Below the pieces are notes generated by a model. That model saw nothing but the letters and a program-made list of their open reading frames with translations. It searched no databases and had not been told where the DNA came from. Made by a program: the position numbers and the translations under genes. Shown piece by piece: positions 175 through 54,495 of a stretch of 64,000 nt of DNA. Origin of the DNA: Eledone cirrhosa (Eukaryota); contig OZ024765.1 in NCBI GenBank assembly GCA_964016885.1, positions 8,680,001 through 8,744,000 on the forward strand, in the 5' to 3' direction. The first letter of the stretch is position 1; every line of letters begins with the position of its first letter.

Positions 175-249
175 GCTGTGATACATATTTCAATGACGAC
201 AGTGGCCACATGATTCCGTGTACCTGGTGACGTGAACTCATCAGACAGC
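175..249 (-). ncRNA. Type I hammerhead ribozyme candidate (Penelope-like pLTR fragment)
   Basis: Minus strand: GCTGT-CTGATGA-(long, imperfect stem II)-GAAA-T-ATGT-ATC^ACAGC. Stem I is GCTGT/ACAGC, the core is intact, and AATAAA follows shortly downstream. Confidence 0.65.
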
Positions 250-332
250 TTCTTACATATTTAGGTAACGTTCTCAAGGCAATCCAAATTAAAACAAGGG
301 AACAGACAAAGGTGATGTTCCTGAAGCCTTCA

Positions 333-806
333 CATATACATACGTGTGTATGTATGTACGTTTGTATGTATGCATGTTTGTATATATGTATGTATGTTTG
401 TATGTATGCATGTTTGTATATATGTATGTATATATGTATGTACATTTGTATGTATGCATGTTTGTATGTATGTATATATGTATGTATGTATATATGTATG
501 TATGTATGTATGTATGTATGTATGTATGTACGTTTGTATGTATGCATGTTTGTATATATGTATGTATATATGTATGTATGTACGTTTGTATGTAGGTATG
601 TATGTATGTATATATGTATGTACGTTTGTATGTATGCATGTTTGTATATATGTATGTATGTACGTTTGTATGTATGCATGTTTTGTATATATGTATGTAT
701 GTTTGTATGCATGTTTGTATATATGTATCTTTTATAAATATATGTATGTATATATGTATGTATGTACGTTTGTATGTATGCATGTTCGTATATATGTATG
801 TATATA
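333..806. repeat. (TATG)n-type microsatellite
   Basis: Degenerate TATG/TGTA tandem repeats. Confidence 0.95.
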
Positions 807-1877
807 GAGATGACCCCTCCGGGAGAGATGACCCCTTAGCCTTTGTCAAGGCAGAATTCTAGAAGGAAAACTCTGATATAACACTGCAACCCTGATGGTA
901 TCCAATGATGTTGACTTGTTCTTCTTTTTGGTAAATATCATCTTGGTCAAGAGAGTGGGACTGGCTTTGTGCAGTGCCTTTGCTCACTATAAAAGCTTCA
1001 CGGCACAGGCATTGCTTTATATCTGGAGATCTCTCTGCACTTGTCGTTACATGGTACCATGGGCCCAGCACTATGTGTCAATAATTGTCACAAGTGTAGT
1101 GTTTGTACCAGAGTTTTCAAGTCGCTGGCTGGACTAAAAAGTCACACTCGTTCAGCGCATCGGTAGGGGTTCTCCTACATGGATATAAAGTAGTGGCCGT
1201 ACTCGAAAACGAGTTGGCAGCCACCATGTATATATGTATATATGTATATATGTATGTATATATGCATGTCAGGTCACCAGTTGGTGTTACTGGTAACATG
1301 TATCCCAGTACAACCTGTCTCATGGTCGGGTCATTGGCGACTAAACTGGCAACCCCACCAAGGTTTCTTGGTGAGGAGGGTGACTTTGGACATCCTGCAG
1401 GACTAAAAACAAAACCTGTCAAAGGCCAAAGGAGCTCTTAAGAGTCAATGGCCATCCAAAATCACCGGGAGAGATGACCCCTTAGCCTTTGTCAAGGCAG
1501 AATTCTAGGAGAAGGAAAAAATCTGATATAACACCTGCAACCCTGATGGTATCCAATGATGTTGACTTGTTCTTCTTTTTGGTAAATATCATCTTGGTTA
1601 AGAGAGTGGGACTGGCTTTGTGCAGTGCCTTTGCTCACTATAAAAGCTTCACAGCACAGGCATTGTTTTATATCTGGAGATCTCTCTGCACCTGTCATCA
1701 CATGGTACCATGGGCCCAGCACTATGTGTCAATAATTGTCACAAGTGTAGTGTTTGTACCAGAGTTTTCAAGTCGCTGGCTGGACTAAAAAGTCACACTC
1801 GTTCAGCGCATCGGTAGTGGTTCTCCTACATGGATATAAAGTCGTGGCCGTACTCGAAAACAAGTTGGCAGCCACCA
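807..1877 (+). mobile_element. Two near-identical copies of a non-coding interspersed repeat (807-1227 and 1268-1877), probably a SINE-like or LINE UTR-derived element
   Basis: 820-1227 is nearly identical to 1466-1877. Both end in GGCCGTACTCGAAAACRAGTTGGCAGCCACCAT followed by TA/TGTA repeats. A diverged copy lies at ~3145-3592 and a 3' end on the minus strand at 4636-4672. Confidence 0.7.
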
Positions 1878-1986
1878 TATATGTATGTATGTACGTTTGT
1901 ATGTATGCATGTTTGTATATATATGTATGTATATATGTATGTATGTACGTTTGTATGTATGCATGTTTGTATATATGTATGTATGT

Positions 1987-2448
1987 CGTTCTTTCTCTTA
2001 ATTTCGAGCACATTTTTGACCGGCCACCTTCCTGGTAGCAAGGTTGTAAAAGAAAAGAAATTGTCATCCCTTGAATCGCAAGAATGTTTTGCAAATTTTG
2101 AAGGTGCCAGCTATCGCAGCCATTTGCAGACTATGAATTAGGGAGCTGCGCTTTTTGTCCGCAAATCCAAGTTCAGTCATACTTTGGTCCAAGCGGGTTG
2201 GTATATAACCCGTAGCACCAATAATGATGGGTATGAAGCTAAAGGTGTATCTTGGATACTGGATTTGTAAACTCCTCATCAATGGTCCGTAGATGTCCTC
2301 CTTCTCCTGTATTTTTCTGACAACGTTTGCATCAAGTGGGCAGCTGAACTCCACAACAGAACACGTTTTCAATGTGTGGTCCCAAACTACAATATCAGGC
2401 CGGTTGTGCTTTAATTTGGTGGCAGTTTTTATTTTCAGGTTCCACCAG
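1987..2448 (-). mobile_element. 3' end of an R4/Dong-like non-LTR retrotransposon (restriction-like endonuclease domain + 3' UTR)
   Basis: ORF contains HNRPDIVVWD...VVEFSCP...KEDIY...PIIIGATG, the PD-(D/E)xK RLE motif set. The 3' UTR runs into (CATA)n. Confidence 0.85.
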
Positions 2449-2496
2449 TATGTATGTATGTTTGTATGTATGTATGTATGTATATATGTATATGTA

Positions 2497-3082
2497 TGTT
2501 CTTCTGATTTTATAATTTCACAAAGTTTTACCAAGAGAGAGAGAGTCGGTTTCTAACATAGACACAAGACTCTCTCATTGGAATTTACACAACATCAACT
2601 AGATAGATATGTATGTCTGCATGTGTAGATATGGATGTTATTGTATGTGTGGATGTGTATGTTCTGAGTTGTATGTGTGCATGTGTATATGCTTAGTATC
2701 TGTACATGTGTATGCAAAATTTTTGGAATGTTTTACATATTTTTACTGTTCCATTAATGGATTGTACTTGTAATTTCCTAACTAGTTGTGTTATTTCTGT
2801 TCCTGTGAAGCCTAGCTTCTCAAGATTTGTATTGAGGCAGTTACTAACATATCCCAGTGCCCCAATAATCACAGGCATAAATCTGAAGGTGTAATCAGGG
2901 TGGAGTGTCTGCAGATTTCTCATCAGTTCTGCATAAATATTCTCCTTTTCACTAATCTTTGATATTATATTGTCATCTGCTGGGCAGCTAACTTCCACTA
3001 CTGTGCATGCCTTCTTTTCCCTGTCCCATATCATAATATCTGGTCTCTTATGTCTGCATTTTATTGGGGATTTTTACCAGTG
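2497..3082 (-). mobile_element. Second, diverged R4/Dong-like RLE LINE 3' fragment
   Basis: RPDIMIWDREKKACTVVEVSCPAD...KENIY...PVIIGALG...VKICKTF is homologous to the fragment at 2064-2448. Its 3' end also abuts (CATA)n. Confidence 0.85.
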
Positions 3083-52226: not shown

Positions 52227-52245
52227 TATATATATATATATCTAT

Positions 52246-52443
52246 ATAACGAAGGAAATGTGGTAAGGAACCAGGTGGACCATAACGCACCAAAGTACTC
52301 GATACTTAGGGTAGTAGAGTGGGTAATAGGAACAAGTAGGACCCCGATGGCTGAGCTCAAGCCGTTTCGACGACTAATTCTGAGTCCAGAATTAGCCGTC
52401 GAAATGGCTTGAGCTCAGCCGTCAGGGTCCTACTTGTTCCTAT
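52246..52443 (-). mobile_element. Fold-back element, family 1
   Basis: Arms ~52326-52382 and 52387-52443 with a few mismatches. Confidence 0.8.
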
Positions 52444-52697
52444 ATATATATATATATATATAGGATCTTATAGACACCTGTTAGCTTAAGAGAAACTTAA
52501 TAATAAGGAGTGGTACCCCATCCTGAACTTGTTTATAGAATTCTTTCTGCCTTTGTTACTCTAAAAATAAAAATAAACTATAGCTTTGTAGAATTAGCTT
52601 TTAATGAATTCCCTTTTCTATCAACTAATGACCTCTACCCATCCCTCTCCTACCACTTGAAGAGACCTATAAATACCATACTTATTTTTTGATACCC

Positions 52698-52748
52698 AGA
52701 TTCCTGATGATTTCTAAAGAATGAAACAGTTCTAGTCCTGTAGAATCT
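52698..52748 (+). ncRNA. Type I hammerhead ribozyme
   Basis: AGATTC-CTGATGA-T-TTC-TAAA-GAA-T-GAAACAG-TTCTAGTC-CTGTA^GAATCT. Cleavage predicted after 52742. The downstream sequence is repeated at 53616-53712. Confidence 0.85.
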
Positions 52749-52844
52749 CATCTATATTAAAACTTTTATACTCTGCAATGTATTGAGTACCTTACTTACT
52801 GTGGTTACCTCCGATTCAACCCGGAATAACGTATATATATATAT

Positions 52845-53288
52845 CATCATCATCATCATCATCAACGTTTAACGTCCGTGTTCCACGCTTGCATGGGTTT
52901 GGACGGGGGTTTTCCCACTTGAGGCAAGAGTGATTGTCTTGCTCGCATAGGACTGTCTGGCAGGTTTTCTACAGTTGGATGCCCTTCCTAACACCAACCA
53001 CATTTACAGTGTGGGTCTGGGAGGTTTTTACTGTGTTGCCTACACGGCCACATTACAGCGTGGACTGTGTGTTTTTTTGTCGTGACACCTACACGATCAC
53101 ATTTGTTTCGGCCTGGATGGTGTGTCACCAACATAACTTTACATAGAAGGGGGCGGTGTGGATGGGGTGGGGGTGGTGGGACGGGGGTGTATTTTGTTAG
53201 AGATGCCTACTGACTGTAGTAGGTTTTACTTTGTATTTAGGTAAGGCGGGTCTTCTCTATTACTGAGTACCGCCAAAGGTCTCGGTCC
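52845..53288 (-). mobile_element. RTE 3' end
   Basis: Reverse-complement match to 9645-10110, with (ATC)n tail on the plus strand. Confidence 0.85.
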
Positions 53289-54495
53289 ATATATATATAT
53301 ATATATATATATATATATATATATATATATATATATATCTTTTAATTTGAATTATATGATAAAGTTAAAACTATGTTGTCTCTGATTGAGACGAAGTGAG
53401 AATGTACTCGAATACATATAAAAATAAGAAAACTCATCACTAGCACAGTCATTAAAACAGCTAAATGCTGTCAAAGACAATGATGGGCAAAAATGCCTGA
53501 GAGGACATAGACCAGCAGCTAGTGGTTGACAAAGAGACAATCCACGTGGGTGACAGGCAGATGATATATAGAAAAGATTGAATTATATATATACATATAT
53601 TTAATATAAAAAAACTAGTCCTGTAGAAGCCATTTCTATGTTAAATATTTACACTCTGCTATGTATTGAGTACCTTACTTACTGTGGTTACCCCCAATTG
53701 AACCTGGGATACATACACACATATATATATATATATATATATTATATATATGTATGTATGTATGTATGTATATCTGTATGTATGTATGTATGTATGTAAA
53801 TCTATATGTATGTATGTATATATGTATGTATGTATGTATATCTATATGTATGTATGTATATCTATATGTATGTATGTATATCTATATGTATGTATGTATA
53901 TCTGTATGTATGTATGTATATCTATATGTATGTATGTATATCTATATGTATGTATGTATATCTATATGTATGTATGTATGTGTATCTATATGTATGTATG
54001 TATGTATATCTATATGTATGTATGTATATCTGTATGTATGTATGTGTATCTATATGTATGTATGTGTATCTATATGTATGTATGTGTATCTATATGTATG
54101 TATATCTATATGTATGTATGTGTATGTATATGTATATATTATGTGTATGTATATGTATATATTATATGCATATATATGTGTATATATGTATATATATGTG
54201 TGTATATATGTATATATATGTATGTATGTATGTGTATATGTATATATATATATGTGTATATATATATGTATATATATGTATGTATGTGTGTGTATATGTC
54301 TATATATATGTGTATATATGTATATATATATATATGTGTATATATGTATATATATATATATGTATGTGTGTGTGTATATGTATATATATGTGTGTATATG
54401 TATATATATATATGTGTGTATATATGTATATATATATATATGTGTGTATATATGTATATATATATATGTGTATATATGTATATATGTATGTGTGT

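Follow-up and report, generated by a model that had tools for sequence, protein, structure and literature searches.

The question raised by the 64-kb stretch of Eledone cirrhosa DNA examined here (positions 8680001-8744000 of contig C26 of G000, a 3.0-Gb animal assembly; hereafter the window) is what kind of element places hammerhead ribozyme motifs, many of them in inverted duplications, in short islands between (TA)n tracts. The islands are almost certainly the 5′-truncated 3′ ends of Penelope-like retrotransposons (Penelope-like elements, PLEs), mainly of the Hydra clade, lodged in (TA)n tracts. The elements themselves are of a known kind; the new part is a twin-hairpin signal in their 5′ leaders and the fit of that signal to both of the discrete ends at which copies terminate.

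Hammerheads were sought with a descriptor that in its first, strict version yielded the 28928/29049 pair only, and that was loosened twice, after the families were known, to admit an extra nucleotide or mismatch at positions 10.1/11.1, long stems II and a U3-A8 core. The relaxed version returned eight matches in the window, comprising seven intact motifs (Table 1) and one probable false match in a short interspersed element (SINE), compared with a mean of 0.09 and a maximum of 2 when the non-microsatellite islands were dinucleotide-shuffled 200 times, and 0-1 matches for ten decoy core pairs. An earlier note on this DNA had listed about ten motifs; the positions proved exact and 7 of 11 pass the descriptor, the other four having core lesions. 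These four are damaged copies, with whole cores in other copies of their families, and at the family level the core (C3-G8 or U3-A8, GAAA, NUH and three helices) is whole for all eight sites. The CUGANGA/GAAA/NUH core that had been ascribed to every motif likewise holds at the family level, save that the motif at 23356+ carries a U3-A8 core in place of CUGANGA.

Chance matching in AT-rich repeats might be entertained, given that Rfam finds none of the motifs (no matches in the window at gathering scores), that two of the decoy core pairs reach 11-12 matches in fixed samples of the genome (59 stretches of 10 kb, 590 kb in total, a 60th requested contig being too short) and that the false SINE match recurs. 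This explanation is refuted, and its probability is practically nil: the relaxed descriptor gave 74 matches in these samples versus 0-3 in 15 shuffles and 0-12 for the ten decoy core pairs (48 versus 0-3 for six decoy settings with a stricter descriptor), the families recur, and, as the note had asked of genomic copies, the stems and the core pair covary. With positions 3 and 8 left free, C-G was found 175 times and U-A 43 times in this genome, all other pairs accounting for 26; the sister families C and I differ by a U3-A8 versus C3-G8 swap along with two stem I pairs, and subfamilies of G by an A-U versus C-G swap in stem I, the anchors here being searched without a pairing condition. As far as sequence can tell, this covariation shows selection on the hammerhead in master lineages, as opposed to activity of the copies in the window. 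The G10.1-C11.1 closing pair is present in families B, F and H and absent from A (G.U), C (C.A), D and G (U.U) and E (U-A), and stem II is 46-116 nucleotides (nt) long in several families.

Removal of three SINE-borne matches leaves 71 motifs in 590 kb (bootstrap 48-95), which extrapolates to ~240,000-480,000 motif arms per genome, a figure that counts inverted pairs twice. The density of the samples is like that of the window, which is therefore typical in motif density, with one intact motif per 8-9 kb and not the one per ~6 kb previously estimated; simple repeats make up 46% of the window and (TA)5 or longer tracts 28%, versus 14% and 7% in the samples. A (TA)5 tract lies within 300 nt downstream of 61 of 66 evaluable sampled motifs, against a background of 21-31%, and an inverted arm lies next to 33 of 68. 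The earlier description of the sites as inverted duplications between (TA)n tracts holds in part: (TA)4 is present on both sides of four of the eight sites, on the 3′ side only of two and on neither side of two, and four (15426, 23175, 28829 and 47021) are inverted duplications while the other four are not. Family searches (762-2279 first-look candidates per site, 40 scored per search) provided 1.46 Mb of fetched loci, enriched for the families searched, in which 297 distinct descriptor matches form 48 clusters, 21 of them with at least two copies.

Every listed site belongs to a dispersed family, and longer copies of families B-H carry PLE open reading frames (ORFs) that are colinear with, and on the same strand as, the hammerhead. 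The proposed search for ORFs encoding a reverse transcriptase (RT) and a GIY-YIG endonuclease linked seven families, i.e. six (B, C, D, E, G and H) of Hydra-clade type and one (F) of Nematis/Neptune type, and none was linked to family A. Both branches of the earlier proposal, PLE remnants and non-autonomous elements (the latter in the form of family A, at 175-), are thereby borne out, whereas the supposed lack of relationship between families is not: the B, D, E and G proteins are 32-50% identical and the C and H endonucleases match them at 29-38%. Nor are the islands wholly invisible to ORF annotation, an endonuclease remnant of family D (E 2e-5) persisting in the window. Evidence for the links includes a 714-amino-acid open frame (L030) and a whole unit (L029) of family E, a whole ORF with one frameshift in G (L407), loci L404 and L405 for B, and a single locus (L037) for H. 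In L112 the ORF adjacent to family B belongs to a separate truncated insertion and was not counted as a link. Family H, which is the commonest fold-back in the window and has 60 arms in the fixed samples, was considered as a hammerhead-less (Naiad-like) family and rejected as such, its whole copies showing a U3-A8 motif and a Hydra endonuclease.

Assignment to the Hydra clade rests on motifs, compared with reference sequences as given in a published supplement, and is to that extent putative. RWK and DKT are found in E, and RWR and DKT in G (the N-termini of B, C, D and H were unrecovered); a CxCX5C linker, CxxC and CxH, with no CCHH, occur in B, D, E and G, and CxCX5C/CxxC/CxH can be read from translated remnants of C and H; and hammerheads and (TA)n insertion are found together. 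Copies have ragged 5′ extents, consistent with 5′ truncation, and partial tandems of the pseudo-long terminal repeat (pLTR) are seen in L029, L407 and L404. Units can exceed the 3 kb considered usual for the clade (4.3 kb is the period of family E in L029) because of 3′ untranslated regions (UTRs) of 0.7-1.9 kb, those of B, C and G measuring 1.2-1.9 kb. Homologs of the E protein (41-59% identity among the best 120 of 1497) are annotated as PF26215 and in one case PF01541; a Pfam scan of the Hydra-type ORFs assigned no family, and a PDB search with their profile gave no matches. Family F has a CX4CxxC linker, two cysteines lying between the motifs GIY and YIG, a CCHH endonuclease, and a GIY-YIG match at the C-terminus (Pfam E 4e-4, under the curated cut-off); it looks to be of Nematis/Neptune type, the short linker spacing appearing Nematis-like when compared with the text of Craig Fig. 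S2.

Further features of the E and G units were observed. A second, diverged hammerhead lies in family E between the ORF and the terminal motif (L027:2326-2413, 4221-4308); a hammerhead cleavage site must fit the NUH rule, and since G occupies the cleavage position in 17 of 17 matches this second motif should not cut. Two direct G-family hammerheads 8.5 kb apart flank one ORF in L407 (629-9169), and 6.2 kb separates the end of the ORF from the second of them, a long UTR and nested insertions both being possible. TA/TG/CA microsatellite makes up ~60% of the 3′ UTRs of E and G (L027:3826-5700; L406:1660-3510), elements which would therefore spread target-like sequence, and the 3′ UTRs of B and H are almost without it.

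Family A, to judge from its sequence, is an older, ORF-less derivative with a type I hammerhead. The unit measures 1.1-1.6 kb, its best copies being 86-90% identical to one another; it lacks the single ORF for RT and GIY-YIG, and in 10 of 67 loci examined the tail continues directly into the body without an ORF. No colinear match to the Hydra profile was found in the family A loci, nor was a non-Hydra partner ORF found when probing with F and one other PLE fragment. Direct 3′-end repeats lie 1.1-1.3 kb apart in L309 and L310, and among the 67 loci only partial tandems and inverted arms were seen, retrozyme-style short tandem arrays being absent. That the islands are mutually unrelated, self-standing non-LTR retrozymes, with short tandem units and circular RNAs, is scarcely credible. 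Retrozymes are proposed to derive from PLEs, and family A does combine the lack of an ORF with direct hammerhead repeats; however, seven families run on into RT/endonuclease ORFs, which refutes the idea for B-H, the 5′ ends are ragged, and short tandem hammerhead arrays, as would be expected of the retrozyme-like elements envisaged in the note, were seen neither in the window nor among sampled matches.

Discrete 3′ ends are found downstream of the cleavage site in every family. The order in whole elements is hammerhead, short end, hairpin 1, long end, hairpin 2, RT and GIY-YIG ORF, 3′ UTR and hammerhead, and copies stop at either the short or the long end, within a few bases on the 5′ side of a hairpin, with TA beyond. 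In 10 of 11 clusters, hairpin 1 begins 6-9 nt after the short end; although this end is anywhere from 17 to 61 nt away from the cleavage site, it tracks hairpin 1 (r 0.99). The gap between the long end and hairpin 2 is 4-8 nt in leaders of E (L029), H (L193 and L220) and G (L407, with a variant hairpin), so that the overall offset of both ends is 4-9 nt before one or other hairpin, and hairpin 2 of family A is found ~12 nt past the end probe. Tails are 60-135 nt long. Among 98 inverted pairs (86 from families without D, and 12 of family D), 90 combine a long with a short end, none combines two long or two short ends, and eight are unclassed; the tail is present on one arm only in 90 of the 98. 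Many fold-backs have near-perfect mirror arms and short palindromic centres, as might result from single priming followed by the cDNA snapping back to copy itself, and the long and short pattern could be imitated if self-copying stalled at hairpin 1. Such an origin is nevertheless highly unlikely: self-copying should finish at random positions or at the same end, yet 90 of 98 pairs have the second arm finishing at the alternative discrete site, and either arm may extend further 5′.

The hairpin, located at the start of the tail and in the leader, takes the form of a bulged RCUC-stem-loop-U(N)-GAGY. Of 40 hammerhead clusters that have long flanks, 12 carry it, versus 22 of 3000 stretches taken at random and 4 of 3200 that were shuffled, and the families that bear it are A, B, C, D, E, G and H. 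In L302 an apparent third hairpin of the same kind lies beyond the long end of family A. The hairpin was examined also in foreign loci, namely 78 Hydra-like loci retained from 403 metagenome matches, which contain near relatives, their counts not being independent. With pairing required, it was found at 29 of 53 hammerheads and upstream of 26 of 50 ORFs, and 16 times in 166 kb of ORF interiors. With the anchors only, 60 distinct hammerhead flanks yielded 45 with both, and the 15 without include several short-end copies or false hammerheads inside ORFs; in the 45, with pairing not required, inner pair 1 is invariably Watson-Crick (26 U-A, 19 C-G) and pair 2 pairs in 39. An alignment of 33 of the 45 has 99.4% of cells paired and a covariation score that, subject to the tool's caveat on sequence relatedness, was reached by none of 500 shuffles, and a model built from these 33 sequences located 12 sites in the window at E up to 5 (best E 1e-6), ten of them in element tails. 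Of the 78 loci, 51 have a pair of 3′ anchors spaced by 48-83 nt (55-83 nt in 32 full leaders), and divergence points fall within -14 to +2 of the hairpin start in 13 of 20 cases, or 7 of 9 from single contigs. By eye, the hairpin is present in three of six Hydra consensus sequences (one from coral, two from sea cucumber) of Craig's File S7, with a near-match in sea louse and two unclear cases. An Rfam E-value scan of three foreign loci returned only one chance match to a small nuclear RNA and, since Rfam scans gave nothing else, neither hammerheads nor hairpins match a curated family. The twin hairpin was not found in the literature searched, which did not take in subscription papers or Repbase notes, and the main text of Craig 2021 has no matches for hairpin or stem-loop.

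These patterns suggest that the fold-backs probably arise by cutting of both DNA strands and copying of RNA from two starts set by the hairpins. Frangieh 2024 (PMC11167929) showed for Poseidon PAc of Anolis that AT-rich DNA is cut on both strands, each of which is then extended, that RT begins at two internal sites coinciding with the ends of the tail, and that the hammerhead requires protein but can be dispensed with for insertion in vitro. By analogy, we infer that this two-start scheme may carry over to the Hydra clade, for which the hairpins appear the best candidates for setting the starts. The RT-endonuclease protein, perhaps two copies per RNA, would dock on each hairpin, and AU-rich bases 5′ of the hairpin would pair with the nicked (TA)n end, leading to reverse transcription. 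One start per cut DNA end would yield the long and short fold-back, both cDNAs usually stopping early before being joined head to head, and the tail would be the stretch between the two hairpins. The hammerhead, kept by selection in master elements, would likely trim the precursor RNA with the help of protein; in fold-back copies it is likely to be silent, because in a read-through RNA the two arms would pair with each other. The ORF-less family A would be a passenger that retained hammerhead and hairpins, likely mobilised in trans.

The hairpins might alternatively act as DNA, either as single-stranded hairpins or paired inverted sites that are cut, by the element's endonuclease or a nuclease of the host, when an insertion intermediate is resolved, or as promoter sites, which seems unlikely. 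Their outer four pairs are nearly invariant in sequence, as in a protein-binding inverted repeat, Craig 2021 puts the tail down to resolution by the endonuclease, and for Drosophila Penelope Frangieh 2024 refers to recognition by the endonuclease that depends on the tail. However, the inner stem covaries freely, ranges from ~6 to 80 nt and has a one-sided bulge, all of which fits a single-stranded fold; G-U pairs are present in the stems; and the tail ends were mapped to RT starts on RNA in Frangieh 2024. Slightly less likely again is a role in the translation or stability of the uncapped, ribozyme-cut RNA, with ends clustering via TA-like flanks that pair with the target. The position of the hairpins in the 5′ leader, 40-150 nt upstream of the ORF, and their AU-rich flanks would suit such a role, yet other AU-rich leader stretches exist while the 6-9 nt offset is fixed in 10 of 11 clusters, the ORF-less family A retains the hairpins, and the long and short composition of the pairs would be left unexplained.

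Several observations weigh against hairpin-set starts. Family F has the hairpin in none of 24 copies, despite which 4 of 4 inverted pairs are of the long and short type; the hairpin is therefore not needed for tails in general, since F has discrete ends and tails without it. Hairpin 1 was detected in only 1 of 13 long copies of family A, and hairpin 2 is known from only four families of this genome (E, H, A and, as a variant, G), the leaders of B, C and D not having been found. Seven of the 20 foreign divergence points lie elsewhere, TA microhomology makes the exact ends hard to place, and the AU-richness just before the hairpins (71 of 95 bases) might in itself attract priming. In addition, the hairpin motif was first defined on data from this genome, predicted folds are weak (z -2.7 to +0.3), several copies in the window are predicted to fold neither as hammerhead nor as bulged hairpin, and PAc starts lie inside an AC-rich stem-loop as opposed to beside one, as here.

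The basic phenomenon is already published. Craig 2021 (PMC8557442) describes the Hydra clade, the hammerheads it carries, a preference for (TA)n and one Octopus family (Hydra-1_Obim, Octopus bimaculoides), which the E protein resembles by eye; inverted copies, tails, (TA)n targeting and hammerheads are reported for the clade by Cervera 2014 (PMC4209133), Craig 2021 and Frangieh 2024. The present elements share the C-terminal GIY-YIG, RWK, DKT, CxCX5C and CxxC/CxH, a hammerhead close to the 3′ end, insertion into (TA)n, truncation at the 5′ end, inverted copies and a tail on one side. They differ in that six families are linked in a 64-kb window where one octopus family is listed, in the ~20 multi-copy hammerhead clusters in 1.46 Mb, in the 4.3-kb E unit (a tendency to <3 kb in Craig 2021) and in tails of 60-135 as opposed to 30-40 nt. 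Opposite-strand hammerhead pairs 100-700 bp apart, mainly single truncated copies, were described by Cervera and De la Pena 2014 (PMC4209133). All hammerhead traits seen here are in the covered parts of that paper (type I, palindromic helix III, an extra nucleotide before 10.1, U3-A8, high variability) except for the varied closing pairs and the 46-116 nt stems II. The number estimated here is 25-50 times the 9,000 given there for Xenopus tropicalis, a rough comparison as the descriptors differ. PAc belongs to another clade and starts 111-118 nt within the ORF, with no conserved paired signal described in the sections covered, whereas the ends here lie in a non-coding leader beside a repeated motif that is shared across species. 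Family A resembles non-LTR retrozymes (PMC7229834; Li 2026, 10.64898/2026.07.22.740005) in being non-coding with a type I hammerhead and PLE-like ends, but measures 1.1-1.6 kb against 51-972 bp, forms truncated or inverted partial tandems and not arrays, and has Hydra-type hairpins; Cervera 2020 (PMC7229834) gives up to 120,000 retrozyme copies in axolotl. Family F shares with Nematis/Neptune PLEs the CX2-5CxxC linker, two cysteines between GIY and YIG, and a pLTR hammerhead. The covered parts of Bonar 2026 (PMC13282606) report 30 recently active Penelope families in O. vulgaris and do not mention hammerheads. What goes beyond published work is the scale of the motif and the twin-hairpin cis-element.

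Choice of internal starts, tails and inverted copies in PLEs is an open question named by Craig 2021 and opened in vitro by Frangieh 2024. The twin hairpins offer a short, mutable signal and an exact prediction, namely that the start follows the hairpin. A broader proposal is offered tentatively, as somewhat short of an even chance: that a twin RNA signal, extending from cnidarians to molluscs, allows two RT-endonucleases on one RNA to prime both ends of a cut (TA)n target, a few AU bases adjoining each hairpin serving as a telomerase-like mini-template. The analogy is with the telomerase template, PLE RTs being the closest kin of telomerase, and given this kinship a structure by which a short template is held next to a stem would matter more widely. 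If this is true, one rule would cover the PLE tail, the long and short fold-back and the mobilisation of ORF-less passengers, and the several hundred thousand hammerheads and fold-backs of this genome would have been seeded by the twin signal. The data suggest that the 3-Gb genome holds a few hundred thousand intact-looking hammerheads, and many perfect fold-backs, missed by Rfam and ORF annotation; if the hairpins act otherwise, the remainder is an ordinary though large expansion of a known clade.

The features of the window are collected in Table 1, which includes ten islands beyond those listed earlier (five of family H, three of I, one of J and a G fragment). Window copies of H and I retain only the 3′ half of the hammerhead, and family E is young, many of its copies being 100% identical.

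Table 1. PLE-derived features of the window (positions in the window; lesions relative to the hammerhead core)
Feature	Position	Strand	Details
Family A 3′ end	142..331	-	Intact hammerhead 249-175, CUGAUGA, 46-nt stem II, AUC site
Family H fold-back	10151..10365	.	3′ half of U3-A8 hammerhead; whole motif in L268
Family H hairpin 1	10294-10317	+	On long arm only of 10151..10365 fold-back
Family B fold-back	15426..15915	.	Intact hammerhead 15531-15466 (-, short arm)
Family B fold-back long arm	15719-15784	+	Hammerhead with G12A; hairpin 1 at 15834-15853
Family I fragment	15935..16012	+	Hammerhead 3′ half; C3-G8 sister of family C
Family C	23175..23541	.	Intact U3-A8 hammerhead 23356-23495 (+), 107-nt stem II
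Family C inverted arm	23300-23218	-	Tail bearing 83-nt hairpin 1
Family D	26627..27008	+	Endonuclease remnant 26627-26767; hammerhead 26940-26977 (earlier listed as 26932+) with G8A, family core otherwise CUGAGGA; short end
Family H fold-back	27031..27205	.	Hairpin 1 at 27134-27157 (+)
Family H-like tail fragment	27252..27375	+	
Family J perfect fold-back	27402..27574	.	Tail hairpin 27503-27528; hammerhead/ORF link not found
Family I fold-back and tail	27594..27858	.	Long hairpin 27725-27645 (-)
Family E perfect fold-back	28829..29141	.	Intact long-arm hammerhead 28987-28928 (-), hairpin 1 at 28886-28866
Family E short arm	29049-29108	+	Intact hammerhead of 28829..29141 fold-back
Family H fold-back	29348..29562	.	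Hairpin 1 at 29419-29396 (-)
Family I fragment	30139..30263	-	
Family F 3′ end	33916..34269	+	Intact hammerhead 33974-34018, extra nucleotide before G10.1-C11.1; without tail hairpin
Family G subfamily fold-back	47000..47112	.	Both hammerhead arms damaged (47021+: GAAA box altered, stem I partner cut off; 47021-: C3U, 5′ strand of stem I lost)
Family H fold-back	52242..52440	.	Hairpin 1 at 52320-52297 (-)
Family G 3′ end	52637..52830	+	Intact hammerhead 52698-52748; U.U at 10.1/11.1, 4-bp stem III
Family G hairpin 1	52770-52788	+	In 52637..52830 copy; long end
Family G subfamily fragment	53612..53712	+	Begins at cleavage site; hairpin 1 at 53653-53671

Two candidates in the window were rejected. 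The hammerhead match at 1351-1504 (-) lies in an abundant SINE-like repeat, its stem I being mainly G-U and its stem II without closing pairs; a SINE-like direct pair (819-1224 and 1465-1875, 96% identical) is the source of this recurring false minus-strand match. The island at 4528-4589 is a short TA-flanked repeat with 16 matches in the 590-kb samples, for which no tie to a hammerhead or ORF was made.

Other features of the window include the last exon of a GDF8/GDF11-like (myostatin-like) TGF-beta gene at 16087-16469 (+; Pfam E 3.5e-27, best PDB match GDF8 at E 5e-38). The family B fold-back ends ~170 nt upstream of this exon and is likely to lie in the last intron of the gene. Broken remnants of a long terminal repeat (LTR) retrotransposon pol (42250-44010, +) and of the RT of a long interspersed element (54800-56040, -) were judged by eye. 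Satellites have periods of 48 bp (5138-5672, 17073-18315 and 47332-49948), 108 bp (6108-7544), 123 bp (44995-45975) and 130 bp (46258-46777), and those at 44995-45975, 46258-46777 and 47332-49948 are apparently amplified pieces of dispersed SINE-like repeats.

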